Below, piece by piece: positions 2,545-26,876 of a stretch of DNA of 32,000 nucleotides. The notes below the pieces were generated by a model. That model did no database searches. It was not told the origin of the DNA and worked only from the letters and a program-made list of their open reading frames with translations. The stretch spans positions 810,001-842,000 of the forward strand of contig OW818653.1 of assembly GCA_942492995.1 (NCBI GenBank). Reading direction: 5' to 3'. Position 1 is the stretch's first letter. The number at the start of each line of letters is the position of its first letter. The translations under genes and the position numbers were made by a program. The DNA comes from an uncultured Erysipelotrichaceae bacterium (lineage in GTDB: Bacteria; Bacillota_I; Bacilli_A; Erysipelotrichales; Erysipelotrichaceae).

Positions 2545-2555
2545 TTAATTACTCC

Positions 2556-2586
2556 TTGACCTGTAGTTACTACATGGTTGTACAGT
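2556..2586 (+). promoter_or_regulatory. MerR-type promoter/operator (copy 1)
   Basis: TTGACC (-35), a 19-bp spacer containing the palindrome TGTAGTtACTACA, then TACAGT (-10). The 19-bp spacer is the MerR hallmark. Confidence 0.6.
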
Positions 2587-2617
2587 ATTAGTATAATTGA
2601 AAGCGAGTAAAAAGAAA

Positions 2618-3469
2618 ATGGAATATATCAAACTTAATAATGGCGTGATTATGCCACAAATAGGTTTTGGGACAATTGGTCTAACAGATGAGGTAGAAGC
2701 AAATGAAGTAATTCTAAATGCAATAAATGCTGGCTATCGTTTATTTGATACAGCACAAGGTTATGGCAATGAAGCTATCGTGGGTCAAGCCATCAAGAAT
2801 AGCCCTATCCCTCGTGATGAACTCTTTATCACTACTAAACTTTGGTTATCTGATGCGACGTACGAGAGAGCTAAGGTATCCATACAAGGATCATTAGATC
2901 GACTTCAACTAGACTATATTGATTTATTTCTAATACATCATCCTTACAATGATATTTATGGAGCTTATAGAGCACTTACAGAATTCTATAAAACAGGCAA
3001 AATTAGAGCGATTGGGGTAAGCAATCTCTATCCAGATCGTTTGATTGATTTTGTTAAATTTAATGAAATAACACCACAAGTAAATCAAGTTGAGATTCAC
3101 TTACTTCACCAACAAGATAGTGCAATTGAGATAATGAATAAATATTCAGTTCAAGCTCAAGCATGGATGCCTTTAGCAAGAGGACATAAAGCTATTTTTG
3201 AAAATCCTTATGTACAAGGGTTAGCAGCTAAATATCACAAAACCGTTGGACAAATCGCGCTCAGATTCTTAGTTCAAAAAGGTGTCGCATTAGTTATGAA
3301 AACAACAAAAAAAGAGAGAATGATAGAAAACATGGATGTATTTAATTTCATGCTTACAGATGAAGAAATGTTAGAAATTAAGAAATTAGATACGAAGAAT
3401 TCAATTGTCTTTTCTCATAAAGATCCAGCACAAGTAGAACGATTCGCTGCGTGGGAACGCAAATATTAA
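2618..3469 (+). CDS. Aldo/keto reductase (2,5-didehydrogluconate reductase-like)
   Basis: MEYIKLNNG...FDTAQGYGNE...LWLSD...LIHHP: the AKR catalytic D/Y/K/H pattern. I prefer the ATG at 2618 over the TTG at 2597. Confidence 0.9.
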   Translation: MEYIKLNNGVIMPQIGFGTIGLTDEVEANEVILNAINAGYRLFDTAQGYGNEAIVGQAIKNSPIPRDELFITTKLWLSDATYERAKVSIQGSLDRLQLDYIDLFLIHHPYNDIYGAYRALTEFYKTGKIRAIGVSNLYPDRLIDFVKFNEITPQVNQVEIHLLHQQDSAIEIMNKYSVQAQAWMPLARGHKAIFENPYVQGLAAKYHKTVGQIALRFLVQKGVALVMKTTKKERMIENMDVFNFMLTDEEMLEIKKLDTKNSIVFSHKDPAQVERFAAWERKY

Positions 3470-3479
3470 GGAGATAAAA

Positions 3480-4484
3480 ATGGAATATATCAAACTTGGG
3501 AATACAGGATTAGAAGTCTCACGCTTGTGTATAGGGACTATGACTTTTGGTCTACAAACAAATCGTGAGGAAGCATTTAAAATATTAGATGAGGCAAAAG
3601 CTGCGGGTATCAATTTTATCGATACCGCTAATGTCTATCCAATAGGTAGAGCTTCATACAATGAAGCTGGATCGACTGAAGTGATTATTGGTGAATGGTT
3701 ACAAACTCAGAAACGAGAAGATTTTGTGATAGTCAGTAAATGCTTTGGTACGATGGGACCTGATTCAACTGATAAAGGTTTAAGCAGAACAGCAATTTTA
3801 AAAGCTGTGGAAGCCAGTTTAGAAAGACTTCAAACAACTTACATAGATCTTTACTTAGCACATCAGTTTGATGAAAATATCGATTATATGGAAACACTCT
3901 CTGCTTTTAATGAATTGATTCAAAGTGGTAAAGTTAAACATATTGGTATTTCTAATTGGCGTAGTTGGCAAATCATGAAAGCGAACGGATTAGCATTAGC
4001 TAATAAATTAACTCCATATACTGTAATTGAACCACGCTATAATCTACTCTTTAGAATGATAGAAGATGATTTGCTTCCTATGGCAATTGAAGAGAACATG
4101 GCTGTAATTACCTATAATCCCCTCGCTGCTGGATTACTTACGGGTAAATATACAAATAATGAAGAAACAATTGAGGGTACTCGCTTTACCTTGGGTGGTG
4201 CGACAAGTGCTCTATATCAAGAACGTTATTGGCAAAAAGCACAATTTGATGCAGTTGATGCATATCGAGTTTGGTGTGTAGAACAAGGATTGGAAATGAT
4301 ACCAACAGCGATAAAATGGGTTCTTCAACAAAAAGGAATTACCTCTGTCATTATTGGAGCAAGTCGTGTACAACAATTAGCTGATAGTTTAAAGGTAGTT
4401 AATATGCAAGACTTAACACAATCACAACTCAAATGGCTTAATAATCTTTGGTATAGTCTACCAAGAAGAAATGAAAATAGATAA
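3480..4484 (+). CDS. Aldo/keto reductase (long, Tas/YghZ-like type)
   Basis: AAGGAG RBS. MEYIKLGNTGLEVSRLCIGTMTFG...FIDTANVYP...GISNW motifs. Confidence 0.9.
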   Translation: MEYIKLGNTGLEVSRLCIGTMTFGLQTNREEAFKILDEAKAAGINFIDTANVYPIGRASYNEAGSTEVIIGEWLQTQKREDFVIVSKCFGTMGPDSTDKGLSRTAILKAVEASLERLQTTYIDLYLAHQFDENIDYMETLSAFNELIQSGKVKHIGISNWRSWQIMKANGLALANKLTPYTVIEPRYNLLFRMIEDDLLPMAIEENMAVITYNPLAAGLLTGKYTNNEETIEGTRFTLGGATSALYQERYWQKAQFDAVDAYRVWCVEQGLEMIPTAIKWVLQQKGITSVIIGASRVQQLADSLKVVNMQDLTQSQLKWLNNLWYSLPRRNENR

Positions 4485-4487
4485 TGC

Positions 4488-4518
4488 TTGACCTGTAGTT
4501 ACTACAATGATTTAAAAT
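4488..4518 (+). promoter_or_regulatory. MerR-type promoter/operator (copy 2)
   Basis: The same 19 nt as copy 1 (ttgacctgtagttactaca), then TAAAAT as -10 after a 19-bp spacer. Confidence 0.6.
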
Positions 4519-4536
4519 GAAATTAAGGAGGTAAAT

Positions 4537-4896
4537 ATGAATCACATCCACACTTTTTCGCGGCAGTTATGGAAAGCAATACAAGATAGAGATGTTGAAA
4601 GCTTTTTAGAGATGACCTATGACAATGCACGTTTTGTTCATATGGGAATTACATTTACACGTGATCAAGAAGCAGAAGTTATTAAAGAAGGTCGTATCCT
4701 TTATCAGAAAATTGAGTTTGAAACTGAAGATATCCAGAAGATGGACTCAACATGGATTGTATTAAATAAGATTAAGTTAGAAGCAGTTGTTAACGGAAAT
4801 GTTGTCACAAACCCCTTTGTCGTTACAGAAGTATACATTGAAAAAGATGGTGCGCTTCACTGTGCTTCCCTATCATTTACAAAAATTACATACTAA
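4537..4896 (+). CDS. NTF2-like / SnoaL-like (DUF4440-type) small protein
   Basis: AAGGAGG RBS. Size of 119 aa and an alpha+beta cone-like pattern. The family call is weak. Confidence 0.5.
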   Translation: MNHIHTFSRQLWKAIQDRDVESFLEMTYDNARFVHMGITFTRDQEAEVIKEGRILYQKIEFETEDIQKMDSTWIVLNKIKLEAVVNGNVVTNPFVVTEVYIEKDGALHCASLSFTKITY

Positions 4897-5760
<864 letters not shown>

Positions 5761-5819: not shown

Positions 5820-6284
5820 TTACTCACAATAATGTTTAATGATTTCACAAAATTCAATTCTTTTTTTGTAAAATAAACATAATAAACTAGCATAAAAACC
5901 TACTAATATTATTAATTGTTCTTCTAAAAATACTAACTTTAAATTAAACATTATTCCAAGTAAAATTGAAGGCATTTCTATTATTTTCAACCATGCTAGT
6001 GGTGTAAAAATCGTAATTAATATAAATAATATAATCCAAACAAATATATGAATTCTTACTGATTTATAATATAAGATAACTTTTGAATTATGTGCGAAAC
6101 GATATAAAATGACACCAAGTAAGAAAGATAATAAGAATCGATATATAAAATTAATACTATCGTAAGTATACAAACCTGTTGTAATTATTGTTAGTGAACG
6201 AAGAGTAATTAGAATTATTGGATATAAAAACGACAATAGAATAACTTCAAAATGATTCTTTATTAGTATTTGATTGAATTTCAT
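5820..6284 (-). CDS. Hypothetical polytopic membrane protein
   Basis: Long ORF with 4-5 hydrophobic segments. No recognisable family. Confidence 0.5.
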   Translation of the reverse strand: MKFNQILIKNHFEVILLSFLYPIILITLRSLTIITTGLYTYDSINFIYRFLLSFLLGVILYRFAHNSKVILYYKSVRIHIFVWIILFILITIFTPLAWLKIIEMPSILLGIMFNLKLVFLEEQLIILVGFYASLLCLFYKKRIEFCEIIKHYCE

Positions 6285-6358
6285 TTTATCCCCCGATATT
6301 AATAAAATTATATACTAAAATTAACATATTCTTTGTTTATTCAAAAAAGGTTTATGAA

Positions 6359-6853
6359 TTAATGAGCTGAGTTTGTAGCAGCCGCATTTTGTTGGGACAT
6401 CACTGCATCAATTGCTAAAACAACTGCCAAAGCATTTAATTCATCTCTAGGATCAATGATATCAAGCACATAAGTATCACCCCAAGTAAGCCATTCTTTC
6501 TTGATAGAAACAACAACTCTTCCTTGACTAAGAATTTCATAATCATGTGCCCACATATTTCCATTAACTTCCCAGTCTAAACCTAATACAGAATATCGTG
6601 GTTTAAAGAAAGAGAACTCCTTTACGATTTCAGCTACTTGTTGTCCATCAACATTCACAAAAAATCGAGGTAGAAAACTCCATACTTTTTGTTGAAAGTA
6701 TATACGTTCTTCTCGATTTTCATCATATACATGGAGTTTCTTTCCTATCGTAAAAATTTCACCTTCAACGAAGTAACGATCAACTCCTGATTCATCTTTA
6801 ACCGAAAATTTGTCGTTGAACGATAATACTTTTTGTTTAATATATAATTTCAT
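6359..6853 (-). CDS. LURP-one-related / YxjI (tubby C-terminal-like) family protein
   Basis: The start MKLYIKQKVLSFNDKFSVKDESG...YFVEGE and the length are typical of the family. GGTGGGA RBS. Confidence 0.7.
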   Translation of the reverse strand: MKLYIKQKVLSFNDKFSVKDESGVDRYFVEGEIFTIGKKLHVYDENREERIYFQQKVWSFLPRFFVNVDGQQVAEIVKEFSFFKPRYSVLGLDWEVNGNMWAHDYEILSQGRVVVSIKKEWLTWGDTYVLDIIDPRDELNALAVVLAIDAVMSQQNAAATNSAH

Positions 6854-7153
6854 ACTATCCCACCTTTATCTAATATATGTATATTTTACAGTAGTTCTTG
6901 TAATTTTATCTTAAAAAATTATTTAACTATACACAACTCAAACGTCTGATATAATGATTAAATTTAGATTACTAATTAATCTATAGAGATTAAGTGTTTA
7001 TATTCCTCGTTATTTAATCATGAAAATAGAATGCTTGCCTTTGATCACAAACCATTTGTAAATGGAAATCAAATAAATCCATAAGTTTAATAATATAAGA
7101 ATTAATTTTTTCTATTTTTTTGTCATTTTCATATTTACTTATAGAATATTCCA

Positions 7154-7738
7154 TTAACGAGGTATGTAATCAATGATTATCATATCCTCATAAATGAGTA
7201 TTAAGTACAGATATCCACCATCTTTCATTTCGTGATTATAGGTAAAATATCTGAAACAATCACACTTCAGATTAAAAGGAAGAAGTTCTACTTTAGAAAT
7301 CTCATTAACTGTACCATCCTCAAAAAGATTAAGAACAGGCGCAATACCATTAACAACTTCATATTCAACGGAAAGTTTGTCCATTTTTAATTCATTCACA
7401 TAAAAATCTAAATCACTTTGTTCATTGAATTTTAAGATCGAAAAATACTCGAATAATTCTTCTTCATAGCTAGTAATGGTATATTTATCACTTTCTACAT
7501 AAGGAAGATGATATACAACTCTAAAATAATCTGTTGGTGGTTTCTTGTGTACTGGATTCTTCGGCAAATAATAGACAATTACAGCTAATATAAAAATAGC
7601 AATACATGCTAATATTAATTTAAAAATTGTTGTTTTCATAAACAAACTATTTTCCCACTCCCACTTAGAAATAATTCTATCATAAAATAAATGAACGAGA
7701 TTATTAACAGTAAAATTGAGAAACCATAAATATTTCAT
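7154..7738 (-). CDS. Hypothetical membrane-anchored protein
   Basis: Long ORF. The real start may be the ATG at 7639 (MKTTIFKLILACIAIFILAV... signal anchor). Confidence 0.45.
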   Translation of the reverse strand: MKYLWFLNFTVNNLVHLFYDRIISKWEWENSLFMKTTIFKLILACIAIFILAVIVYYLPKNPVHKKPPTDYFRVVYHLPYVESDKYTITSYEEELFEYFSILKFNEQSDLDFYVNELKMDKLSVEYEVVNGIAPVLNLFEDGTVNEISKVELLPFNLKCDCFRYFTYNHEMKDGGYLYLILIYEDMIIIDYIPR

Positions 7739-7811: not shown

Positions 7812-7955
7812 ATGGAGCGGATGATGGGATTTCTATATATCCTTACGTAAAATTTCTTAAAACGCACTATAACTGCATATAAGCTAACATAATTATACAA
7901 GATTGCATAAGAATTTAATATAAAATTGATATTCCGTGACCCAGTTGTGACCCAG
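7812..7955. repeat. att-type repeat: 18-nt copy of the tRNA-Gly 3' end plus a ~125-bp conserved arm ending in GTGACCCAGttGTGACCCAG
   Basis: atggagcggatgatggga (7812-7829) is identical to 18452-18469. The whole 144 bp matches 10161-10304 with about ten mismatches by eye. Confidence 0.85.
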
Positions 7956-8211
7956 CTTATGTTTCACACTTAATTTATAAATTTCGATAAATATCTATAT
8001 ATAAAATTACACTAATCTCAAGTTTAAATACTCAATATACTTTTGTCGGTTAAATATTCATTTTAAATAAAATTCAATCAATCATTGTTGGGATATTTTA
8101 AATGCTTATTATGTGTTCTAAATATTTCTAGGTGTGGTAAATAGGTAGTCGACCTTTTCTATATAAGACATTTTGAGACATTCAATAATTGATGTTTGGT
8201 TGGACGTAATG

Positions 8212-8760
8212 CTATTTCTTATTTTTAACAGCAGTACAAATATACCAATAAACTTCCATGTCATTGATTTCCAAATTATCAACTGTATCGGTCCCCCCTA
8301 GAAATAGTGGTATTTTGTAACCAACGCACTTGTCTTTCTGTAAATCATTTTTATTATTAATTCTCCAATTATTAAAGAATGACGAAGCTAAACAAGCATC
8401 ATGATAAAGTGGGATTTCTTCTTCATGAAAATTCATAAAGTTACATGGGATTTCAAGAACATCTGCTGTTCCTATTTCGAACATCAAAACATTACCCTTT
8501 GTCCTACTTCGAAGATCTAAAGCAAAACAATTACCCAACCAATCATAAGCAAAAGGCTCAAAACAGTTTTCAAAATCTGGATAACCCTCAGTGATAATTC
8601 GTTTCCATTTGTCTATATTTGTATCATCAAAAACTCTATAGACTCCGTTCCCGAATGACATTCCTTGATATTATCTTCTGAAATTTTCCAAATCGTTACT
8701 ATTAGATATTTCACTCTCACTTATTTTAACATCGAAATATTTTTCAAAGTTTATAAACAT
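8212..8760 (-). pseudogene. Tdi1/DUF1851-like immunity-type protein interrupted by an in-frame TAA
   Basis: ATG at 8760 (GGAG RBS upstream) encodes MFINFEKYFDVKISESEISNSNDLENFRR. An in-frame TAA at 8673..8671 follows, then YQG and the listed ORF. FEPFAYDWLGNCFALD...IPLFLGG resembles the T6SS immunity protein Tdi1 C-terminal domain. Confidence 0.55.
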
Positions 8761-8908
8761 TTTTTTACTATCTCCTTATTATATAGTTATTTAACAGATG
8801 TTTTACACTCAAAATTAGTACTATAAGTATTTGATAAACTATAAAATTTAAAAACAAAGTATATGACAAATTATCTTATATTTAGACCAACAAAAATTAC
8901 ATCTATTT

Positions 8909-9343
8909 TTAAGCTTTTAACTGATTACGTACTTCCATTAAAATTATACCTAACATATTTTTACCTGAACCATTGGTTCCACATCCCCAATAATAATCCG
9001 TTGATGTACCTTCTACAATCACTTCATTTTTGGTACTTAGAAGTATATCTTTAATGCTTTCATTTTGAGAAAATTTTTCAAAAACTGCTTTCCTCATTAT
9101 GTCATCTTTAACTTCTTCCCAATCATTTCTTAAAGGTAGACTTTTATCTCTTCCCTTAATAGCTACATCCATTGGATTTTCAAGATGTCTAATAATTTCT
9201 TCAAATTCAGTACCTTCAAATTTTTTCGCTTGAAAATAATGCTCTGATGTCATCCAATATTTCCCTTCAAGTGTAAAACCATAATTCGAGAAATTAGAGA
9301 AGCATCCATACTCTTCATTTACCTTATAGAACTTTATTGCCAT
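8909..9343 (-). CDS. NADAR (DUF1768/YbiA-like) family protein
   Basis: GCFSNFS...W.TSEHYFQA.KF...DYYWGCG...G.N.LG motifs are diagnostic of NADAR. Confidence 0.85.
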   Translation of the reverse strand: MAIKFYKVNEEYGCFSNFSNYGFTLEGKYWMTSEHYFQAKKFEGTEFEEIIRHLENPMDVAIKGRDKSLPLRNDWEEVKDDIMRKAVFEKFSQNESIKDILLSTKNEVIVEGTSTDYYWGCGTNGSGKNMLGIILMEVRNQLKA

Positions 9344-9358
9344 TTACTTTACCATAAT

Positions 9359-9664
9359 CTAGTCTCTTTTAAATATTCTACTTAAATAATTCTCAACATT
9401 TCCAAGTTCTAAGAAGAGAGGTTCAGGGTATCTAGAATGATAGGCTTCTGAATTCATTGATTTATAAATAAAGAATAACTTCCCAGAAAGTTTAATAGGT
9501 ATGTTTTCTTCATCTTTAAGTATCACCAATATCTCATCAAGCAGAAAATAAAGTTTATCAAAATTTGCTCTACTTATCGATTTTGATGTTCTAATTGGCA
9601 CCAATAAGCCAACTATTAATGAATCAATCTCATTACATATCTCATTTAATCTTTGATTTTTCAT
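9359..9664 (-). CDS. Hypothetical small protein (101 aa)
   Basis: GAGGGAGGG RBS lies 8 nt before the ATG at 9664. The longer track ORF (to 9871) has no RBS and a low-complexity N-terminus. Confidence 0.55.
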   Translation of the reverse strand: MKNQRLNEICNEIDSLIVGLLVPIRTSKSISRANFDKLYFLLDEILVILKDEENIPIKLSGKLFFIYKSMNSEAYHSRYPEPLFLELGNVENYLSRIFKRD

Positions 9665-10160
9665 GGTATAACCCTCCCTCGATTTTTCTTGTATACTCTC
9701 AAATATTGATTTCTCTTGTTGCCAAACTAGTATAGGTAAAATTTTTACTTTAACTTCAATTATCCTTGTTATGTATTCAATCTTACTTATAGAAATGCTA
9801 ATCATCAAATCTTTAATATATTCATTACTGATACTTACATTAGCTCTATAGTATACCTTCTTGATAATCATTATTTTAAATTATTAAACTTTTCGCTTAT
9901 TTTCTTACATTTATGAGAGAGGCATGCCTCTACCTTTTAAAATATAAATCCTTATTCTTAAATATCAAATTAACATATACATAATTATATTATAAATACA
10001 TTTTATAAACCTACAATTTATTACACGAATACAATTTAATATGAAGTAAAAACTAATTCGAAGACTACAAATTTGATCTGATAAATTTTATATGAATGTT
10101 TATGAAGTTTTATAAAATTTTACATATAAAAATACCCAATTAAGGGTATTGACATTACAT

Positions 10161-10304
10161 ATGGAGCGGATGATGGGATTTCTAGATACCCTTACGTAAA
10201 ACTTCTTAAAACGCTATATAATTGCATATAAGATAATATAATTATACAAGATTGCATAAGAATTTAACATAAATTTGATATTCCGTGACCCAGTTGTGAC
10301 CCAG
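10161..10304. repeat. att-type repeat (second copy): tRNA-Gly 3'-end 18-mer plus conserved arm
   Basis: See 7812-7955. The GTGACCCAG doublet is at 10285-10304. Confidence 0.85.
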
Positions 10305-10596
10305 CATGCAAATTACAATACTAATATAAATGGCAACCATATCCTACAATGTTTTTCCACTGTATACAGTATAGAGTATTAAATCAAAAACAAGAATTAA
10401 GAATATAAAAGATGCCTAAATCTAAATTATAAAATTTATATTCTCTTATAATCTTACCTGTCAAAGATTCACATCATTTTCTAGATATCCTTTTTAATTG
10501 TTTGACTTTATGTTCCATCATTCAGATTATCACCGTTACTTCGAAATAATTTAAATTAATGATAAGAATTTTATATTTCTTTTAAAATATCATAAT

Positions 10597-10638
10597 AAAA
10601 ACGAGAAAACACTCATTATTTGCATCTTCTCGTTTTTG
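10597..10638 (-). terminator. Terminator after module C (bidirectional hairpin)
   Basis: aaaacgagaa...ttctcgtttt with A/T runs on both sides. Confidence 0.6.
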
Positions 10639-10701
10639 AAATACTACAATATGATTAAAGCACATATTCATAAATCTTGAGAATTCAATTCATTAGAATA
10701 G

Positions 10702-10905
10702 TTATTTTTTATTCTCAGAATGAATTCCAATTAAAACAAACATAATTCCTATTATTGTAAAAGAAATATATGTTAACACACGAGTATAAATATAAAGATT
10801 TTGACCATATAGGAAAATTCCAATTTTATAAACTACTGAACCCATCAATTGTGATAGAAGAATTATCATTATACCAAATAACATTTCAAAGTTTAGCTTT
10901 CTCAT
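10702..10905 (-). CDS. Small two-TM membrane protein (module C partner; immunity-like)
   Basis: AAGAGG RBS. 67 aa with two hydrophobic helices. Confidence 0.6.
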   Translation of the reverse strand: MRKLNFEMLFGIMIILLSQLMGSVVYKIGIFLYGQNLYIYTRVLTYISFTIIGIMFVLIGIHSENKK

Positions 10906-11001
10906 TTTAACCTCTTTTACTATTTAAAAAAATATATAGTTCAAACCTCAGTTTAAAACAAAAAAATTTCTCAAGTATTTAATTAAACAGAAGTTTAGCT
11001 T

Positions 11002-11604
11002 TTAATATTGAGTTTGTATATACTCTTCTCTATAAGCATATTCATAATGATTTGATGTATAACTTGCTGAAAAATTTATTGTAACTGAAGATCCAACTGC
11101 AACATTTACACCACCACCATAAGTAGTAGTTCCGTTATCAAAGAAATCACCATTTACAATAAAAAATATTTTATATGCCGATTCTAAATTTGCATAAACT
11201 GTTCCGCCAAATTGTTTTGACATATTATCATAATTTCTGTCCATAGAAACATTCAAAATTCTAACAATTCCCCAATAACCGCCACCTTCAGATGTTTCAC
11301 AATAAAATCTCATCTGAATTTTGTACAAAGAAGTTATTTCAACCTGTTTTGCAACAGTTCTATATGTAGCCGATAATGCTCCTAAAGCACTTCTTGAAGT
11401 TGGTAGTGGCATTTGTAATTTAGCCTCTTCAATTGATATTCTATTGTCTTTAGCAATTGCTTCAACAACTTGATCATATGTCATTACTTCACTTATTACA
11501 ATGTTTTTATCATTTATATTTATACTACTATTCTTAGCTGAAACCTCTTGTGGTATAAATAGAAACAAACACAATAATACAACTTTGATAAAAATATTTT
11601 TCAT
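11002..11604 (-). CDS. Secreted protein of unknown function (module C cargo)
   Basis: Sec signal peptide ending QEVSA|K. Mature part is Gly/Asn/Tyr/Thr-rich with a single Cys. AAAGGTGA RBS. Confidence 0.7.
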   Translation of the reverse strand: MKNIFIKVVLLCLFLFIPQEVSAKNSSININDKNIVISEVMTYDQVVEAIAKDNRISIEEAKLQMPLPTSRSALGALSATYRTVAKQVEITSLYKIQMRFYCETSEGGGYWGIVRILNVSMDRNYDNMSKQFGGTVYANLESAYKIFFIVNGDFFDNGTTTYGGGVNVAVGSSVTINFSASYTSNHYEYAYREEYIQTQY

Positions 11605-11619
11605 TTTATCACCTTTCTT

Positions 11620-11695
11620 TTTTCAATTACCACCTATTTAACTAAATCCAAAGAAATTTATTATATTTAGAACTTACTTAATAAAATAGCCTCAA
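11620..11695 (-). pseudogene. Decayed agrD remnant (module C)
   Basis: Same SD + TTG overlap with the agrB stop as at 15850, but it reads M-R-L-F-Y-stop. Downstream ATTTCTTTGGATT aligns with the FFG ring codons of the intact copy. Confidence 0.5.
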
Positions 11696-12255
11696 TCTTT
11701 TACCCCCTTTCTTCCCATTAATAACAATGCTGAAGTACTTATTAATACATAACTAAGAACTAGATATATTGGATTCTTAAGAAAATATAAAACTAATGTT
11801 AATAACATTAAAACAAATGAAATGATTCTGCTTGTAATTTTGTGAAACGATTTTTTCTCTTTACTCATTTTTTTATTCTTATGTTCAATTGGAGCTAGGA
11901 GAAATATTATCACTATTGACATGATCACAGTTATAAATAAACCTTCATATGAAAACATAATGTTACTTCTGTAATAGATAAAAATTAAATATACTGTTAT
12001 AAATGAAAGATTACATGACAAATATGTCTTTGAATGATATCCTCCAGTACATTGGCGAAGCAGTATGAAACATATAAGAAATACGAGCGAATCAAAAAAT
12101 GTATTCGACAAATAGCCAATTATTAATATCAAACTTATTCCGATTAGAGAAGAAATTAGTAATTCAAAACCGTACTTGTATATTTCAAACTTATCTTGAA
12201 TTACTCCAACTTTTTGTAATCTTAGTGTGATTGTGTTTGTAAGTTCATTTATCAT
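11692..12255 (-). CDS. agrB: AgrB-family accessory gene regulator B (AIP-processing membrane peptidase), paralogue 1
   Basis: Polytopic 187-aa protein. LRQCTGGYHSKTYLSC has His and Cys 7 residues apart, as in S. aureus AgrB H77/C84. Confidence 0.85.
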   Translation of the reverse strand: MINELTNTITLRLQKVGVIQDKFEIYKYGFELLISSLIGISLILIIGYLSNTFFDSLVFLICFILLRQCTGGYHSKTYLSCNLSFITVYLIFIYYRSNIMFSYEGLFITVIMSIVIIFLLAPIEHKNKKMSKEKKSFHKITSRIISFVLMLLTLVLYFLKNPIYLVLSYVLISTSALLLMGRKGVKD

Positions 12256-12285
12256 ATTTCTATATACTTAATTTATCAAAATATA

Positions 12286-12316
12286 TTTAAAAACCAAGTA
12301 CTCTGGTGCACTTGGT
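12286..12316 (-). terminator. Conserved hairpin (terminator/attenuator) between kinase and agrB
   Basis: On the minus strand, CCAAGTGCACCAGAGTACTTGG followed by TTTTTAAAT. It starts at the kinase stop codon. Copies also at 16450-16471 and 18063-18084. Confidence 0.6.
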
Positions 12317-13614
12317 CATATTAGTGGTGTATCTGGTATTTTTAATAACACTTCTGCATTAAATACTTTGCTATTTTCATAAAAATCTATACTACCTTCA
12401 TATTTATTCACTATGCTCTTTATGCTCAAAATTCCATACCCATGATTCTTTTTATTTTCTTTTTGTGATTTAAACCAGAAATTTTTCTCTTTGACAGAAT
12501 CCTTAATTGTATTACTAATTTTTATGAATAGGTATTCGTTAATAATCTTTAATTCAACCTGTAAATGTTTATCATTAGGATCAATATTCTCAATCGCATT
12601 ATCTAGCAGATTCCCTAGACTTATCGCTAGATCTCTATCATCAATATTTATTTTATTATCTATGTTTATAGTTATTTTGGATTTAATGTTTAAAGAATTA
12701 GCTATACTTATTTTTTGATTTAATATTGAATCTATTCCTTGAATACCAGTGAAAATATAATCAGAATTGTTTGTAACCTCATTAACATCTCTAAAAAGTT
12801 GATTTAATTTATCAAATTCTTTATTTATAATATATTGATTAGCTAATACTAGAATATGTTTCGTATCATGTCTAAGCTTTTGTAGTTCGAAGTTCAATGT
12901 TTTTAACTCATTGTAACTTCTTTCCCTTGCATGTAGATCTTGAATAACTTGTTCTTGTTCAAACTTAATTTTTTGATCAAATTGAATTTTTATGAAAATA
13001 TAATATACAAATCCAAACTGTAAAATAGCTGCAATAGTCGCAATTCTAATGGTTTTATAGTCAATTTGATGAGTGAAAATAATCCCATAAAGCAATACTA
13101 TAATGCTGTAACTTAGAATTAAAACAACTAATATTAGAAACCAACTCTTCGAATCAACATTATAAGATAGACTTTTCTGACCTTTTATACAGATATTCAA
13201 TATAATTATTAATATGAGTTTAGATAGAATTATCACTATCCACTTGCCATAAGTAATATTATTCAATAAATAAATTATTTCGACATTCAACAACATTGAG
13301 ATAATAAGCAAACTAATAAAATTCGTAATTGCTATCATTAATATAACAAAGACACTAGAAAAAACGCGTTCCAATTTTGAACTTATTGTTGTATAGCTAG
13401 TATATATGTAAAGAAATAATGAGACTAATAGTGGTGAAATACCATCAAATTCGTAGTAATAATTAGAAACAGACAAAGTGATAAAAATTAGTGTTCCAAA
13501 AAGTATAGTAATACTCAAAGAATTCTTCTTACTTTGTTTATGAAAATAATTAACAAAATAAATTAAGATCAATACTTCTATTACATTAAGAAACAAATTT
13601 AAATACAGTTCCAT
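12316..13614 (-). CDS. agrC: AgrC-like sensor histidine kinase (HPK10-type)
   Basis: N-terminal half is polytopic (about 6-7 TM). H-box KLRHDTKHIL, N-box LGNLLDNAIEN and G-box HGYGILSI. Confidence 0.85.
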   Translation of the reverse strand: MELYLNLFLNVIEVLILIYFVNYFHKQSKKNSLSITILFGTLIFITLSVSNYYYEFDGISPLLVSLFLYIYTSYTTISSKLERVFSSVFVILMIAITNFISLLIISMLLNVEIIYLLNNITYGKWIVIILSKLILIIILNICIKGQKSLSYNVDSKSWFLILVVLILSYSIIVLLYGIIFTHQIDYKTIRIATIAAILQFGFVYYIFIKIQFDQKIKFEQEQVIQDLHARERSYNELKTLNFELQKLRHDTKHILVLANQYIINKEFDKLNQLFRDVNEVTNNSDYIFTGIQGIDSILNQKISIANSLNIKSKITINIDNKINIDDRDLAISLGNLLDNAIENIDPNDKHLQVELKIINEYLFIKISNTIKDSVKEKNFWFKSQKENKKNHGYGILSIKSIVNKYEGSIDFYENSKVFNAEVLLKIPDTPLI

Positions 13615-14315
13615 TAATATTTATTCCTTAAATAGTCAATATACTTACTCTTAACATAATTAAATTTTAATCTTGAAACAGGTAGTTTTAAATTATTATG
13701 ATCAATGTACAATTCATTGTTTTCAATTTTATTAACATACTGTAAGTTTACCAATATAGAGTTATGTATTCTAATTAAACGAGTATCATTAATCTCTTCT
13801 TCAAATTTTGAAATACTTTTTCTATATTTGTATTCTCTATTTTTGTTACACTTTATCACAATGTAGTTCTTCATCTTTTCAATGTAAACTATCTCGGTGA
13901 TTTGCAAACTTATGATTTCATTATTTACTGTAATTAATACAGTCTTACGTTTCTTATTAATATCTTCAAGTAAAAGATCTAACGCTAGAATTAAGTCATT
14001 CGTCAATGCACTTTTTCTAACAAAATAAAAAGGGTTTACTTTAAATGAATTGAAAACTAGATTGTCGTGATTTGTAATAAATATAATATACCCGTCAGGA
14101 TTTAACTTTCTAATTTTCTCTGCTAATTCAATACCGTTCATCACTGGCATATCAATATCTAAAAGGTAAACATCAAAAAAATCTTGAGTAATTTTTAAAT
14201 CTGTTGAAAGTTGAAATATTTCCAAATTTAATTCTTGATCTATTTTTTCTCTGACGATTAAACTAATACAATTAATATCGTTAATGTTATCATCAACAAT
14301 TGCAATACGTAACAT
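13614..14315 (-). CDS. agrA: LytTR-family response regulator (AgrA-like)
   Basis: Receiver domain with DD...LLDIDMP. C-terminal LytTR domain (IVYIE...IRIHNS.LVN). TAATG overlap with the kinase start. Confidence 0.9.
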   Translation of the reverse strand: MLRIAIVDDNINDINCISLIVREKIDQELNLEIFQLSTDLKITQDFFDVYLLDIDMPVMNGIELAEKIRKLNPDGYIIFITNHDNLVFNSFKVNPFYFVRKSALTNDLILALDLLLEDINKKRKTVLITVNNEIISLQITEIVYIEKMKNYIVIKCNKNREYKYRKSISKFEEEINDTRLIRIHNSILVNLQYVNKIENNELYIDHNNLKLPVSRLKFNYVKSKYIDYLRNKY

Positions 14316-14471
14316 AAATCCCCCGATGTCTAAATATTATAGTGAAATTATACCATAACCAATCAAATTAGATATTGATCTAAGGAATTCAAGCAAAAAT
14401 GATATTGTCAGTAAGAAAAATCATAAGTGTTTTTTACGTTATTTTGAGAAGTTTTATAACATTTTGCATAT

Positions 14472-14522
14472 AAAAAACTGAAACTTCAAATATAATATAT
14501 CAATATATCTTTGAAGTTTCAG
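14472..14522 (-). terminator. Rho-independent terminator after module B
   Basis: 13-bp stem ctgaaacttcaaa/tttgaagtttcag, followed by T6 on the minus strand. Confidence 0.8.
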
Positions 14523-14570
14523 AGTAATAAAATCACTTAAATTAAAATTATACTTAATTAGTCAATTGCA

Positions 14571-14879
14571 CTAATCAAAAGTAAACCCAGCAGCTTTTTG
14601 TATCGATTTGATTAATTTGACTGTTTTATCGTAACTAATCCCAATCGAAACATCCAATCCATTATTCGCTTTACTAATTACTTCTAACACAAACTCCTCA
14701 ACATTAATTTGAGATCTCAAGTCCTCTGGGACTTCAATATCATGCTCGATTAACCAATTTTGAACATCATCATATTTTAAATTTAAAGCAACTTCTTTTA
14801 GTTCTTCATTAATATTTTTACATGATGTTAAAAAAAATGAGATAAATAGTATAACCAATATTAAACTTAATTTTTTCAT
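14571..14879 (-). CDS. Small lipoprotein (module B partner; immunity-like)
   Basis: MKKLSLILVILFISFFLTSC lipobox. The track start (TTG 14888) is probably too long. Overlaps or abuts the upstream gene. Confidence 0.65.
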   Translation of the reverse strand: MKKLSLILVILFISFFLTSCKNINEELKEVALNLKYDDVQNWLIEHDIEVPEDLRSQINVEEFVLEVISKANNGLDVSIGISYDKTVKLIKSIQKAAGFTFD

Positions 14880-14880
14880 C

Positions 14881-15681
14881 TTATTCAATAGAACCTCTTA
14901 CTTGCAGAAATCCAACAATATAGTATATAGAACTTGTATATGTTGTACTTGGTGCATAAGTTACACCATTAAATGAACCTTCATTTGTCCAAGTTGTATA
15001 GCCTGGTGATGTAAATTTCCATGTTAATATATTTGTATTCCCAGGTTTATGTCTCCATGTATTTACCGTTATTGCTTTCATAACATGAAAATCTGACATA
15101 CCTTTTCTTATCGCTAATACAATATTTGATCCAGAAATCGTTGTAGGTTTAGTTGTTGTTTTATATGCACTAAAGCCCATTTGTGTTAAATCATTTATTA
15201 CTAAGTCAGCCATTTGAGAAATTGACATATCTATTGAAAATCCCCCACCACTTAAATCCCCAGGAGTAAGCCATTGGGTAGTATTAGATAACCCATAAGA
15301 GTAACAATTATAATTTAGAAATGTATTACTCCAACTTCCATAAACTGTACTATTTACTAAAGTATATGCAGCTAGTTGTATATCATTAGTTTTGTATGAG
15401 TATGCAGTTAAAAGTTCATTATAGAGTTGTTGAGTTGGCAAATAGTTGTAAAAACCTGGTTCACCTCTCTTAGCATGCTCATTAAGTTCTTCCAAGATAG
15501 CATCTCTATTTTCCGAATATTTTATTTCATTAGGAATATCAACTCCTAGCAATTGAATTTCATCAATTATAGGGATTGAATTCTCTATATATGCCTTTAC
15601 TGGAGCAGTAAAAATTGAAATAATAATCATCAGAATTGCAAACAAACTTTTCTTAAAAATATAACTTATAGTTTTTTTCAT
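14881..15681 (-). CDS. Secreted protein of unknown function with possible Cys/His hydrolase motif (module B cargo)
   Basis: ATG at 15681 with AAAGGA RBS. Signal peptide ends PVKA|Y. The only Cys of the mature protein sits in NYNCYSYG, with DFHVMK about 75 residues downstream. Confidence 0.7.
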   Translation of the reverse strand: MKKTISYIFKKSLFAILMIIISIFTAPVKAYIENSIPIIDEIQLLGVDIPNEIKYSENRDAILEELNEHAKRGEPGFYNYLPTQQLYNELLTAYSYKTNDIQLAAYTLVNSTVYGSWSNTFLNYNCYSYGLSNTTQWLTPGDLSGGGFSIDMSISQMADLVINDLTQMGFSAYKTTTKPTTISGSNIVLAIRKGMSDFHVMKAITVNTWRHKPGNTNILTWKFTSPGYTTWTNEGSFNGVTYAPSTTYTSSIYYIVGFLQVRGSIE

Positions 15682-15730
15682 ATTTTTCCTTTCATTTAGC
15701 AATTAATACACACATATTCTATGAAATGAA

Positions 15731-15850
15731 TTAGATTTCTGGTTCTTCAGCTTGATATAAGCCAAAGAATGAAGCGCTTCCTGCATTTATATAAGCTGTT
15801 CTTAATGCAATTAGCGCGAATAATCTATAAATACTATCAATTATCTTCAA
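15731..15850 (-). CDS. agrD: AgrD-like autoinducing-peptide precursor, 39 aa, Cys-less (not in ORF track)
   Basis: AGGAGG SD lies 7 nt before a TTG that overlaps the agrB TGA (gaTTGAag). Translation by hand: MKIIDSIYRLFALIALRTAYINAGSASFFGLYQAEEPEI. It has an amphipathic N-terminal helix and an acidic E-P tail, and sits directly after agrB. Confidence 0.7.
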   Translation of the reverse strand: MKIIDSIYRLFALIALRTAYINAGSASFFGLYQAEEPEI

Positions 15851-16410
15851 TCTTTTACCTCCTTTCTTCCCATTAATAACAATACTGAAGTACTTATTAA
15901 TACATAACTAAGAACTAGATATATTGGATTCTTAAGAAAATATAAAACTAATGTTAATAACATTAAAACAAATGAAATGATTCTACTTGTAAATTTGTGA
16001 AATGACTTTTGTTCTATATTCATTTTTTTATTCTTATGTTCCATTGGCGCAAGGATAAATATTATCACTATTGACGTAATCACAATTATAAATAACTCTT
16101 CATATGAAAATGCTATATAATTTCTGTAATAGATAAGAATTAAATATACTGTTATAAACGAAAGATTACATGATAAATAAGTTCTTGAATGATACCCTCC
16201 AGTACATTGGCGAAGTATTATAAAGCAAACAAGAAATACTAGCGAATCAGAAAAAGTATTCGACAATAAGCCTATTATTAATATCAAACTTATTCCGATC
16301 AAAGAAGAAATTAGTAATTCAAAACCGTACTTGTATATTTCAAACTTATCTTGAATTACTCCAACTTTTTGTAATCTTAATGTGATTGTATTTGAAAGTT
16401 CATTTATCAT
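15847..16410 (-). CDS. agrB: AgrB-family protein, paralogue 2
   Basis: About 21 substitutions versus paralogue 1 over 187 aa by eye. H74/C81 motif retained (GGYHSRTYLSC). Confidence 0.85.
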   Translation of the reverse strand: MINELSNTITLRLQKVGVIQDKFEIYKYGFELLISSLIGISLILIIGLLSNTFSDSLVFLVCFIILRQCTGGYHSRTYLSCNLSFITVYLILIYYRNYIAFSYEELFIIVITSIVIIFILAPMEHKNKKMNIEQKSFHKFTSRIISFVLMLLTLVLYFLKNPIYLVLSYVLISTSVLLLMGRKEVKD

Positions 16411-16444
16411 ATTTTCTTTATACTTAATTTATCACAATACATTT

Positions 16445-16540
16445 AAAAACCAAGTGCTCTGGTGCACTTGGTCATATTTCTGGTGTATTTGGTATTTTAA
16501 CAAGAATTTTGAGATTTTTTAAATGAAAATTAAACACTAT
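16445..16540 (-). repeat. Repeat unit: conserved hairpin plus remnant of the kinase 3' end
   Basis: Minus strand AAAATACCAAATACACCAGAAATATGACCAAGTGCACCAGAGCACTTGG aligns with the last codons of the kinase (KIPDTPLI-stop) plus the hairpin at 12293-12360. Confidence 0.7.
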
Positions 16541-16592
16541 TTCAATAGCAACTCATTTAATTATTAAAGCCAATACTATTTTCTTCATGCAC

Positions 16593-16877
16593 TTAGAACT
16601 TCAGTGTTAAAAACAAATACGTAACTATTGCGAGTAAAATACAACTTATATAGCACTTTCCTCTATATTTAGTTGTAGTTGGAATAATTTTCTCAATGCT
16701 ATTAATAAAATTAATAAGAAGTAGAGTACTAATAGATATTACAAAACTCAACTTTGGATAGTCATATAAGGCATAATAAGATTGCGTCAATGTCCATGCC
16801 CAAACAGAAAGAAGTATACCAAGTAAGCAATACAATTTAATTAAAAGTTTTTTTTCCTTCTCCATTAATTTCCTCAC
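16593..16877 (-). CDS. Small three-TM membrane protein (module A partner; immunity-like)
   Basis: GAGGAAA RBS. 94 aa, hydrophobic. Confidence 0.6.
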   Translation of the reverse strand: MRKLMEKEKKLLIKLYCLLGILLSVWAWTLTQSYYALYDYPKLSFVISISTLLLINFINSIEKIIPTTTKYRGKCYISCILLAIVTYLFLTLKF

Positions 16878-17016
16878 AAATTAGTCGTGTTTGCTAATAG
16901 CTTAATTTAAACAACATATAAGTACTTTATAAATATCTAATTTTGTATAGAAGTTATTTCACAATCAATATCTTATGACTATTTGGCTTTTCTTTTAAAT
17001 TATCTCCACAATTATT

Positions 17017-17706
17017 TCATGGCCCACCTGGTGTTGTATTGGTAAAGTCATAGTATTCATATATAGGAGAACCACTATAATCGGCATGAAAATAACCCTT
17101 AGAGACACAGTTCATCCAGTACCAACCAACAAAATATAAATTCCCATTCAAATCCATAGCTAGTTGTTCGTATGTATCTACTTCTGTTTTAAACCATATC
17201 CCACTTCCAGTATAACTCACAAATGTTGCAGAAGAAATAAGTGAAGTTGCAAACGATAACGCTTCAACCCAAGGCATTTTTTTGATTTTTGCGATAATAG
17301 CCAGTGCTAATGATGCTGTACTCATTCCGATCGAAAACCCACCAATATAATGATTAAATGTATTTGTACCAACATATCTATCATAATAGCCATTTGCCAT
17401 TGGCTGAACTAAGCTAGGAGTACTTTCACTTCTTTCAATATAATCCATTTCTCCACTATATTTCTCAATATTACCATTTTTATTCACAATCAGAATATAT
17501 TTATTGTTAGGAAAATATTCTATTCTTGATTTTACTACGACACCTTCTTCGATGTAATTAGCTTCTTCTACAAAAACTTCACCAATTAAGTATCTTTTCT
17601 CATTAAATGTTCTATTCACATTTGAACCAATTTTCATTCCATTTACGGGTTGAATATTTATTATTGTAATCATAGCTATCACAAATAATTTTATAATTTT
17701 ACTCAT
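17017..17706 (-). CDS. Secreted protein of unknown function (module A cargo)
   Basis: AGAGGAAAGGG RBS. Signal peptide ends around PVNG. A central hydrophobic stretch (GFSIGMSTASLALAIIAKI). No family recognised. Confidence 0.65.
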   Translation of the reverse strand: MSKIIKLFVIAMITIINIQPVNGMKIGSNVNRTFNEKRYLIGEVFVEEANYIEEGVVVKSRIEYFPNNKYILIVNKNGNIEKYSGEMDYIERSESTPSLVQPMANGYYDRYVGTNTFNHYIGGFSIGMSTASLALAIIAKIKKMPWVEALSFATSLISSATFVSYTGSGIWFKTEVDTYEQLAMDLNGNLYFVGWYWMNCVSKGYFHADYSGSPIYEYYDFTNTTPGGP

Positions 17707-17758
17707 ATCTTTGAATTCCCTTTCCTCTTTTGATTTTGGATTTTACTATTTCTTATAC

Positions 17759-18023
17759 TTAGTTTTTATTTATCCCAAAGAATTGCACTTTCAAAACTCT
17801 TATTTAAAAAATGCTTAGTAGAAATCTTGTTAATTCCAACATAATTTCTCTCTGTTTTTCATGATAAACTTCTTTCATTCAATGAAATTAAGACTAAAAT
17901 TATCATAAATTTTTTTTGAAACAATAAGTAATACAAAATGTACTTATAAATTTCAAACTTTTCTTTAATTACTCAAATTTCAAGTAATCTTAGTGCTACT
18001 ATATTTGAAAGTTCATTTATCAT
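17759..18023 (-). pseudogene. Decayed agrB (5' fragment with in-frame TGA) plus decayed agrD remnant
   Basis: ATG at 18023 reads MINELSNIVALRLLEI-stop, with TGA where the paralogues have GGA. Homology continues (VIKEKFEIYKY) and then collapses. At 17842..17759 a short frame with an in-frame TAA (17806..17804) retains the TTCTTTGG (FFG) codons. Confidence 0.65.
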
Positions 18024-18054
18024 ATTTTCTCTATACTTAATTTATCAGAATATA

Positions 18055-18150
18055 TTTAAAAACCAAGTACTCTGGTGCACTTGGTTATATTTGTGGTGTA
18101 TTAGGTATTCTTTCAATTATTTCTAGATTTTTTAATGGAATATTTGAACA
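18055..18150 (-). repeat. Repeat unit: conserved hairpin plus remnant of the kinase 3' end (third copy)
   Basis: Minus strand GAATACCTAATACACCACAAATATAACCAAGTGCACCAGAGTACTTGG aligns with the kinase 3' end and hairpin. Confidence 0.7.
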
Positions 18151-18341
18151 TATTTTTATCTTAGATCATTTATTATCTGAACTATAAATATCTTAAGTAA
18201 TAAGAGATTAATTTTATTTTTTTATTTGTAAAAAAATATTGTTTGAGTTTAAGAATACTTTAATTTTGTATAAATGACAATAAAATTATGTTTAAATAAT
18301 AATTCCGAATTGTAACTATGATTATATATTCATATCTAATA

Positions 18342-18369
18342 TGACCCATCCGTGACCCAGCTGGGTCAC
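18342..18369. promoter_or_regulatory. TGACCCA / GTGACCCAG-CTGGGTCAC motif cluster at the tRNA-proximal island end (candidate protein-binding sites)
   Basis: Perfect 18-bp palindrome GTGACCCAGCTGGGTCAC at 18352-18369, preceded by TGACCCA. The same 9-mer occurs as direct doublets at 7936-7955 and 10285-10304. Confidence 0.5.
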
Positions 18370-18452
18370 GTAGATAGAAATTTTATGAAGTTTTATGCAA
18401 TTTTGTGCAATTTTACAACAAAAAAAGCCCTTTTATAGGCTTATGTTACGGA

Positions 18453-18526
18453 TGGAGCGGATGATGGGAATCGAACCCACGTAGTCAGCTTGGAAGGCTG
18501 AAGTTCTACCATTGAACTACATCCGC
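18453..18526 (-). tRNA. tRNA-Gly(UCC)
   Basis: GCGGATGTAGTTCAATGGTAGAAC...CUUCCAA anticodon loop...GGGTTCGATTCCC...CATCCGCTCCA. CCA is encoded. Confidence 0.92.
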
Positions 18527-26474: not shown

Positions 26475-26518
26475 TGATCCAAATCCTTTCATCTATCTGT
26501 AACATTACAAATGTTTTA

Positions 26519-26875
26519 TTATTTCATTCTCTTAATTCTTTTGATCGCTAATGAATAGATATTATCTCTTCTACCACCTGCAATAAATTGAATAACTTCA
26601 TTTATACTTGAATCGATCTCAATTCTTTCAATATATATTTTCAACTCATTATCATTGAGTATCTTAAATATAAGTCTTATCCCAAATCCTCTATGTTTCG
26701 ACTTATAATAACCTAGCAATTCACCACTCAACGGTTTAAACTTCTGCTTTATCACTTCAATTGAGTTATGTTCATCTTCCAAATACGAAATGATTGCCTT
26801 GGCCCATTGTTTTTCTCTACCATCAAACGCACTGAAGTCTTTTTGTACAAGACTACTTATTTCTACCTTTCGCAT
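26519..26875 (-). CDS. RelE/ParE-family type II toxin
   Basis: KPLSGELLGYYKSKHRGFGIRLIFKI pattern. It lies immediately downstream of an antitoxin gene (TAATATG junction). Confidence 0.65.
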   Translation of the reverse strand: MRKVEISSLVQKDFSAFDGREKQWAKAIISYLEDEHNSIEVIKQKFKPLSGELLGYYKSKHRGFGIRLIFKILNDNELKIYIERIEIDSSINEVIQFIAGGRRDNIYSLAIKRIKRMK

Positions 26876-26876
26876 A

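Follow-up and report, generated by a model that had tools for sequence, protein, structure and literature searches.

A composite island at a tRNA-Gly gene of an uncultured Erysipelotrichaceae bacterium carries a triplicated agr-type scaffold in front of three different, putatively quorum-controlled secreted-protein modules

We analyzed a stretch of 32,000 nucleotides from an uncultured Erysipelotrichaceae bacterium (GCA_942492995.1, contig OW818653.1, positions 810,001 to 842,000), called the window below and numbered from its first letter, which carries an agr-type quorum-sensing locus. Between 18.1 and 10.7 kb, one scaffold is present on the minus strand in three copies that are 84-91% identical by self-BLASTN. 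Behind each copy, in the same orientation, lies a different pair of genes, encoding a signal-peptide protein (the cargo) and a small membrane protein or lipoprotein (its partner). The region from 18469 to 10161 is a composite, integrase-less genomic island at the 3′ end of a tRNA-Gly gene, and its gene content includes two intact AgrB genes, one intact AgrD gene, one LytTR regulator and one AgrC-like kinase. Our reading of the locus as a whole, to which we assign a probability of roughly 55%, is that of an accreted composite island over which a single agr circuit is distributed and in which three cargo units would be under quorum control. Every gene of the region, and each island feature located below, lies on the minus strand, downstream of the tRNA array; the units are called A, B and C in the order in which they follow the tRNA.

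An earlier note on this DNA had proposed three units built on one template, and this three-fold repeat was borne out by self-BLASTN. Positions 11681-12342 and 15836-16498 are 90.6% identical over 663 nt, a stretch spanning agrB, a hairpin and roughly 30 nt from the end of the kinase, while 12154-12343 and 17923-18112 are 85.9% identical over 191 nt, and 16309-16542 and 17923-18155 are 83.8% identical over 235 nt. Because the E values range from 1e-57 to 0, the repeat is real and far beyond chance, but with the measured identities the scaffolds cannot be called near-identical, as they had been. The three cargo pairs have no similarity to one another that is detectable in pairwise protein comparison, as the note had also held. 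Kinase remnants had been described at the heads of units A and B; however, only about 30 nt there are shared with the 3′ end of the real kinase, and because these nucleotides coincide with the first half-site of a putative direct-repeat operator, a lost kinase is not demonstrable in either unit. We therefore dropped the idea that kinases were demonstrably lost from them. Unit A does hold a decayed agrB in the form of a 5′ stub of about 100 nt (17923-18023), with an in-frame stop after 16 codons and agrB homology that ends at 17923, but the decayed agrD claimed for the same unit was rejected, its local alignment score of 23 being no better than the shuffled mean of 25. The decayed agrD of unit C, on the other hand, held up: five codons are left at 11695-11678 (TTG AGG CTA TTT TAT TAA), and homology to unit B ends at 11681. 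Unit B is closed by a terminator-like inverted repeat with a T-run (14478-14522), identified by self-comparison.

What had been taken for a kinase remnant with a hairpin is a block of 77 nt, in which a LytTR-type direct repeat overlaps a terminator hairpin. The element consists of a 9-bp direct repeat with a 12-bp spacer, and a conserved leader runs on from it to the agrB start codon. In a search for 9-mers recurring after 11-13 nt, the first hit was TACACCAGA-N12-TGCACCAGA in unit B (8/9 positions matching), where the putative operator and the terminator together occupy 16448-16488, with the hairpin at 16473-16448. The counterpart in unit A (18061-18101) has the repeat ATACACCA-N13-GTGCACCA at 18101-18073 and the hairpin with its U-run at 18086-18061, and that in unit C (12292-12332) has the repeat at 12332-12304 and the hairpin at 12317-12292, overlapping the kinase stop codon. 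The generalized motif TRCAYCA-N14-TRCAYCA has one match per scaffold, where 0.16 chance matches would be expected in the window with one mismatch allowed, and a stricter form of the motif locates only the three scaffold sites in the window. All three hairpins combine a stem of 10 bp with a U5 run behind it and have the second half-site of the repeat in their 5′ arm and loop; the predicted folding energies are -13.3 kcal/mol for unit A (z -4.2), -15.7 for unit B (z -5.6) and -13.7 for unit C (z -4.35).

For comparison, we used genomes that were recovered from metagenomes or as metagenome-assembled genomes and that have the backbone and the tRNA-Gly site in common with the window (L090/L091, L098 and L001-L006). 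The scaffolds of L001-L006 also contain the repeat, as do three of the four in L090, where the post-kinase copy is off by one base. In three distant relatives (L007, L008 and L009), whose AgrB is 35-43% identical and whose DNA cannot be aligned to the window, a perfect ATTACATCA-N12-ATTACATCA stands between kinase and agrB and is followed by an unrelated hairpin and T-run. From the first half-site to the agrB start, the 77 nt are 87-94% identical among six copies from three genomes, including that of unit A, with its decayed agrB (about 80%), and one in L090 from which agrB has been deleted; the 60 nt upstream of the block are only 18-68% identical in the same six copies. AgrA binds paired direct repeats upstream of P2 and P3 (PMC4227749). 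Based on the repeat, the hairpin, the repeats of the distant relatives, the conservation of the 77 nt and this known binding architecture, we infer that the scaffold head may act as a combined terminator and pheromone-responsive promoter. The earlier idea that agrB, agrD and cargo are wired together is likewise supported by the architecture, with a LytTR-type repeat in every scaffold and nowhere else in the island.

Alternatively, the hairpin could be a plain intrinsic terminator and the repeat a coincidence, with agrB, agrD and cargo expressed through partial read-through from upstream promoters. The stem and U-run of each hairpin are typical of terminators, there is no strong -35/-10 pair downstream of them, and promoter-like matches are not commoner than in shuffled sequences (62 versus 69.5), consensus promoter scans being uninformative in such AT-rich DNA. 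We nevertheless consider this explanation quite improbable, given that a repeat of LytTR geometry occurs at the same position in distant relatives with an unrelated hairpin sequence, and that conservation reaches about 45 nt past the hairpin, up to the start codon. A further candidate, an integron-like cassette array, was rejected, as there is no integrase and as the hairpin heads each unit, overlaps the operator-like repeat and has a U-run.

Model searches gave hits above threshold for all four component families named in the note, AgrB, AgrD, LytTR and the kinase. Both intact AgrB genes encode 187 aa (copy C, 11692-12255, PF04647 AgrB 3e-37; copy B, 15847-16410, PF04647 AgrB 6e-36), and H74 and C81 are invariant across 11 homologues, with a seven-residue spacing that we take to be that of H77 and C84 in Staphylococcus aureus. 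The response regulator is AgrA-like (13614-14315; LytTR 1.1e-16, Response_reg 4.3e-12), and the AgrC-like histidine kinase (12316-13614; HATPase_c_5 2.7e-19) has the H-box LRHDTKHIL and at least six hydrophobic segments in its N-terminal part. Since both score far below the cutoffs of the equivalog models for S. aureus AgrC and AgrA, they are not orthologues of the staphylococcal proteins. The sole intact agrD (15731-15850) encodes 39 aa ending in …NAGSASFFGLYQAEEPEI, scores 30.9 bits with TIGR04223 (cutoff 19) and has a start that overlaps the stop codon of agrB copy B. As only this copy, in unit B, is intact, and as kinase and regulator occur only in unit C, it takes the composite to complete the circuit. 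The gene order is regulator, kinase, agrB, agrD, and not agrBDCA with a divergent RNAIII effector; within the window, no Rfam family but tRNA reaches threshold, and an RNAIII-type effector was rejected on this ground. Beyond these genomes, a scan of genome contigs with AgrB found no relative, and one with the alanine racemase yielded only relatives with 40% identity or less; exact protein matches to the alanine racemase and the kinase were not on record, and scans of metagenome contigs with the AgrB profile and with the hairpin DNA pattern were both empty.

AgrD lacks the cysteine that forms a thiolactone in canonical agr systems, and comparison of AgrD sequences places a serine five residues ahead of YQAEEP. 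In AgrD processing, the position of the ring relative to the acidic-proline motif serves as a guide, and autoinducing peptides with a serine carry a lactone ring; the signal peptide of the fsr system is a lactone as well, and not a thiolactone. By analogy, the mature signal is probably a serine lactone with the ring SFFGL. The intact AgrD of the window, of L090 (4752-4871) and of L098 (14991-15110) share the motif NAGSASFFGLYQ(A/P)EEPEI without a cysteine, and GTASYN(V/I)FHQPKEP is found in the distant relatives. The peptide-coding part does not vary among the three intact copies, and between genomes the sensor domain of the kinase is 87-93% identical, so that nothing points to pherotype diversification.

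Taken together, we propose that related agr-type mini-islands accreted in tandem and that their internal att sites have since decayed, which would leave two accreted parts, one with units A and B and one with the regulator-kinase island and unit C. AgrD of unit B would probably be processed by the AgrB of unit B or C into the predicted SFFGL serine-lactone peptide, which the AgrC-like kinase would sense and thereby activate the LytTR regulator. The likely target of the regulator is the 77-nt element that is present once per unit. There, the hairpin would stop transcription arriving from upstream and the repeat would start pheromone-dependent transcription, making each unit an insulated, quorum-controlled transcription unit and the cargoes co-regulated. 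Unit A would then express cargo A and its partner, unit B would express agrB, agrD, cargo B and the lipoprotein and be the source of positive feedback, and unit C would express agrB together with cargo C and its partner.

The accretion is visible in the ends of the island. The integration target is tRNA-Gly(UCC) (18453-18526, identified by ARAGORN and Rfam), the last gene of a Val-Thr-Tyr-Gln-Lys-Gly array. The 18 nt of its 3′ end, TCCCATCATCCGCTCCAT, make up the first att core (18452-18469), which is directly repeated at the end of the agr island (10161-10178) and again at 7829-7812, where a second accreted mini-island (7812-10160) ends in a right arm and the third core. Every core copy is followed by a left arm with a terminator, phased A-tract repeats and GTGACCCAGCTGGGTCAC-N3-TGGGTCA (at 18340-18451, the terminator is that of the tRNA and four phased AAAAYTKCA repeats are present), and every internal copy is preceded by a right arm of CTGGGTCAC-AA-CTGGGTCAC and about 110 nt (10179-10310 for the agr island). 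The same architecture of core and arms was found in L090, L001-L003 and L098. Based on the three tRNA-end cores with their conserved arms, we therefore regard the window as a tandem island array. The G+C content is 23-30% over 5.8-18.4 kb, compared with 31-43% for the greater part of the flanking DNA. None of the open reading frames tested across the 32 kb has an integrase, recombinase or relaxase domain; with att repeats at a tRNA and no integrase, the array therefore fits the definition of accreted cis-mobilizable elements (CIMEs). Within the agr island, a fossil left arm without its core lies at 14430-14476 (29 nt at 93% in self-BLASTN), and L098 retains a degenerate core 48 nt upstream of the homologous point.

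Two further features of the arms were observed. Pairs of the motifs TGGGTCAC/GTGACCCA occur at 18342-18368, 10285-10306 and 7935-7956, and are present in every arm, also in L090, L001, L097 and L098; they are candidate arm-type sites of a tyrosine integrase. Phased A-tracts (AAAAYTKCAY, with a period of about 10 nt) lie behind the first terminator of each island, at 18379-18425, 14430-14476 and 10086-10132, and the tRNA-proximal copy holds a promoter-like TTGCAC-N18-TAAAAT. These repeats could be sites for an integrase or a bending protein, or an inward-reading promoter.

The related genomes separate the histories of the two accreted parts. Backbone identity to the window is about 81% in both L090/L091 and L098, and the alanine racemase of L001-L006 is only 63% identical to that of the window. 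Compared with L090, units A and B are 97-99.8% identical on this backbone and the regulator-kinase part 86-95%, with the break in identity at 14476, i.e., at the fossil left arm. The mosaic therefore implies at least two islands of different histories, of which the one with units A and B was exchanged recently. In L098, a first part consists of a decayed agrB, a 208-aa secreted protein, a 263-aa zinc-ribbon membrane protein, the right arm and the degenerate core. Behind this core come the regulator, the kinase and the repeat, then agrB with an intact agrD, and finally genes for a secreted protein of 142 aa and three polytopic membrane proteins. From this layout it follows that the regulator and kinase genes, the operator, agrBD and the cargo make up a separate att-flanked island, and that its fossil left arm corresponds to 14430-14476 of the window.

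In L090, an additional island adjoins the tRNA and is made up of the scaffold, agrB, agrD and two paralogous secreted proteins (213 and 210 aa), beyond which an att core and then units A and B, the regulator and the kinase of the window follow. A cargo swap behind the L090 kinase was considered and rejected, as, by comparison with L098, L090 has lost agrB, agrD and the 142-aa gene there; this deletion fuses the kept operator and leader straight to the next genes. L001-L006 carry the scaffold, a frameshifted agrB, agrD, insertion sequence (IS) fragments, a 192-aa hydrophobic secreted protein and a 51-aa membrane protein. In total, seven different cargo sets were found behind homologous scaffolds in four genomes, in line with the earlier expectation that cargo would vary in related genomes while the scaffold stays. 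A dedicated recombination-driven system for swapping cargo, which had also been suggested, left no sign, with neither an integrase nor a recombinase in the 32 kb. The variation is explained by the site-specific accretion of att-flanked mini-islands at tRNA-Gly, by deletions and by homologous exchange at the scaffold. Further sources of rearrangement inside the related islands are an IS1595-family transposase at 15386-16387 of L090 and IS30-like fragments at 6926-7204 and 8791-9180 of L001.

The cargoes themselves were characterized through their homologues and structural models. Cargo A (17017-17706) is a 229-aa signal-peptide protein with an internal hydrophobic segment rich in Gly, Ala and Ser, and its partner (16593-16877) is, by translation, a 94-aa protein with three hydrophobic segments. 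The family of cargo A is rare (three clusters). In L097, a homologue of 48% identity is followed by a weakly similar membrane protein, and this pair belongs to an att-flanked array, where it stands beside another pair that is also found in L090 and L098.

Cargo B (14881-15702) is a signal-peptide protein of 266-273 aa, with a lipoprotein of 102-105 aa as its partner (14571-14888, lipobox LTSC). Among the 12 homologue clusters of cargo B, the residues N-C … D-x-H … H-K-P are invariant; DUF7689 is matched marginally in 4 of the 12 family members, and a literature search on this domain found nothing. The model of cargo B (predicted local distance difference test score, pLDDT, 78) has sub-threshold fold matches with several papain-like peptidases among them, which is no more than suggestive. 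Cargo B homologues of 43-52% identity are found in loci without agr, and behind each of them lie one or two copies of a gene homologous to the lipoprotein partner. The partner is present in two copies in L093 and also follows the homologue in L095, and one agr-free homologue of cargo B lies directly at the tRNA-Gly locus of another genome.

Cargo C (11002-11604) is a 200-aa signal-peptide protein from a large uncharacterized family (417 clusters), whose confident, beta-rich model has long strands (pLDDT 90.5) and gave no match below E 0.1 with Foldseek against PDB. Its partner is a 67-aa protein with two transmembrane segments (10702-10905), 33% identical to the partner in L096. Homologues of cargo C are always followed by a small protein with two transmembrane segments, and they adjoin regulators of peptide signalling, namely an HTH/TPR protein in L096 and, on the Bacillus cereus plasmid NZ_CP085502 (L100, 3842-4780), a Rap phosphatase with a Phr-like peptide. 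Profile searches of the cargo proteins against PDB sequences were empty or insignificant.

In all three pairs, an exported protein and a small membrane protein or lipoprotein remain adjacent across unrelated contexts, and because each pair recurs elsewhere without agr, we consider them autonomous, conserved two-gene modules. The cargoes are most plausibly secreted antagonistic or hydrolytic effectors that are each accompanied by a self-protection partner, a division of roles that would fit the pairing, the duplication of a partner, the fast turnover and the orphan immunity-like genes nearby. A different possibility is that the proposed wiring is right while the cargoes are quorum-controlled public goods or surface factors, e.g., an exo-hydrolase with a membrane-anchored inhibitor or maturation factor. 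We retain it since distant relatives have secreted peptidases behind agrD (Peptidase_S8 in L008 and a Peptidase_C1-dockerin protein in L007). The invariant Cys and His of cargo B, the enrichment of papain-like peptidases among its weak fold matches, and the Rap-Phr and HTH-TPR regulators beside the homologues of cargo C point the same way. Such cargoes would parallel gelE-sprE under fsr. Nonetheless, the tight pairing with small partners, the partner duplication in L093, the rapid turnover between strains and the Tdi1/SUKH and NADAR neighbours look more like competition, without being decisive, and we hold the assignment to public goods to be rather unlikely.

Several observations weigh against the reading of a distributed, quorum-controlled circuit. 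The repeat motif was derived from these very sequences, so that only the distant relatives provide independent support, and the best -10 candidate, TGATAAATT, would leave agrB a leader of about 8 nt with a weak ribosome-binding site. Neither the generalized nor the stricter motif search of the window located a repeat operator upstream of the regulator gene; the idea of an operator at this place was dropped, and autoregulation of kinase and regulator is therefore not indicated. There are also signs of decay: the agrB of unit A is a stub, unit C has lost its agrD, cargo A is split in L090, and L001-L006 combine the frameshifted agrB with a Ser to Leu change at the predicted ring position of AgrD. 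Since the cargo modules occur elsewhere without agr, their link to it is facultative. Finally, searches of Pfam, NCBIfam and PHROGs placed none of the cargo proteins above threshold in a known family of toxins, bacteriocins or immunity proteins, and the fold searches with the models of cargoes B and C gave no significant match.

The same decay, extending to the pseudogene state of agrB in L001-L006 and to the internal att sites, and the agr-free occurrence of the modules would favour a view in which units A and B are dead leftovers of accretion, and in which only the regulator, kinase and agrB of unit C matter, the cargoes being passengers and the scaffold functionless. We consider this unlikely. 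The 77-nt block is better conserved than the decayed agrB next to it although it is non-coding, and it has been kept even where agrB is deleted. With the sole intact agrD in unit B, unit C alone would be an incomplete circuit, and the near-identity of units A and B with L090 on a far more divergent backbone argues for recent transfer or selection rather than neutral decay. A more far-reaching version of the distributed circuit is possible, though we hold it tentatively and at well short of even odds: the 77-nt block, with or without agrBD, could be a portable quorum adaptor, carried by att-flanked, integrase-less islands that stack at tRNA-Gly, which would plug novel effector and protector modules into a resident circuit and could even supply a missing pheromone gene. 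If this were true, the locus would represent a horizontally exchangeable, plug-and-play quorum regulon, the effectors of which would be new protein families.

The neighbouring regions contain further genes of note. The mini-island at 7812-10178 encodes a 170-aa protein, a NADAR-domain protein (8909-9343) and a Tdi1/SUKH-like immunity protein (8212-8661), and because no toxin gene is present there, it resembles a small reservoir of orphan genes for immunity or antidote proteins. Past the last att core, DNA of low G+C content continues (5820-7738). It encodes a LURP-one-related (LOR) protein at 6359-6853 along with two others, one of 194 aa that has a single hydrophobic segment and a polytopic membrane protein of 154 aa; the stretch may be an older, fully decayed island. 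Positions 2149-5760 hold a MerR-family regulator, three aldo/keto reductase genes and a DUF4440 protein, all of which belong to the backbone and have no relation to the island. Across the tRNA array, a second stretch of low G+C content (25-29%, 26500-30200) has several open reading frames without a family match, and carries a GyrI-like/Cass2 effector-binding protein (27423-27911) and an SseB-family protein (29277-30155).

Compared with known systems, the single elements of the locus are already familiar (a regulator-first order, adjacent cargo, multiple repeat promoters and accretion), and it is their combination that appears to be new. In the literature searched, we found no description of an AgrB/AgrD-responsive element multiplied ahead of interchangeable cargoes across exchanged, accreted mini-islands. 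The earlier note had set both the regulator-kinase-first order and the cargo next to agrD apart from the canonical agr arrangement. Both are indeed seen here, and distant AgrB relatives share the order of regulator, kinase, agrB, agrD and secreted protein; neither is without precedent, however. Regulator and kinase also precede the peptide-processing genes in the agr2 locus of Clostridioides difficile (agrACDB; PMC3754575), and cargo next to the locus is classical in fsrABDC of Enterococcus faecalis, where the secreted proteins gelE-sprE adjoin the locus and answer to it (PMC3667150, PMC3299793). The agr2 locus differs in its B/D order, is present in a single copy and has no cargo directly behind agrD, and is not known to show any cassette-like repetition. 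The likeness to fsr is closer, comprising a LytTR regulator with AgrB-like, AgrD-like and AgrC-like components, a regulator gene that comes first and adjacent secreted proteins. In contrast to fsr, the genes here run from regulator and kinase to agrB and then agrD, the responsive element with agrB(D) occurs three times with different cargoes, and the cargoes belong to unknown families, are accompanied by small membrane proteins and lie on an att-flanked tRNA island.

With regard to output, the closest parallels are the variable bacteriocin regions. The pln region of Lactobacillus plantarum and the blp region of Streptococcus pneumoniae have the same kinase-regulator design, with several direct-repeat operons for bacteriocin and immunity genes. 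The blp region is described with an HPK10-type kinase, a LytTR regulator, several operons with direct-repeat promoters and an output of bacteriocin and immunity genes that varies between strains (PMC6422914; 2022 bioRxiv). Both regions thus resemble the locus in having one kinase-LytTR pair, multiple direct-repeat promoters and variable output genes. They differ from it in using linear double-glycine pheromones, ABC export and small peptide bacteriocins, whereas the locus has an AgrB/AgrD signal that is partly duplicated along with the promoter, and Sec-dependent cargoes of 200-270 aa. Should the proposed regulation prove correct, it would follow that an agr circuit can be divided among several accreted mobile islands and that multiplying its autoinduced promoter can recruit interchangeable outputs, which would make the locus a cyclic-peptide analogue of blp and pln. 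The combination of direct repeat and hairpin near tRNA-Gly would then offer a handle on quorum-controlled secreted proteins in uncultured low-GC Firmicutes, and at least three uncharacterized secreted families, with their partners, would be candidates for new antagonistic or hydrolytic activities.

With regard to mobility, the closest parallel is with CIMEs, att-flanked cis-mobilizable elements without integration or transfer genes that accrete in tandem (PMC5704250). The array shares with them the att repeats at a tRNA 3′ end, the lack of integration and transfer genes and the tandem stacking, and differs in that its islands are very small (2-8 kb), with putative mobility, and in that their payload is a quorum circuit with secreted-protein modules.

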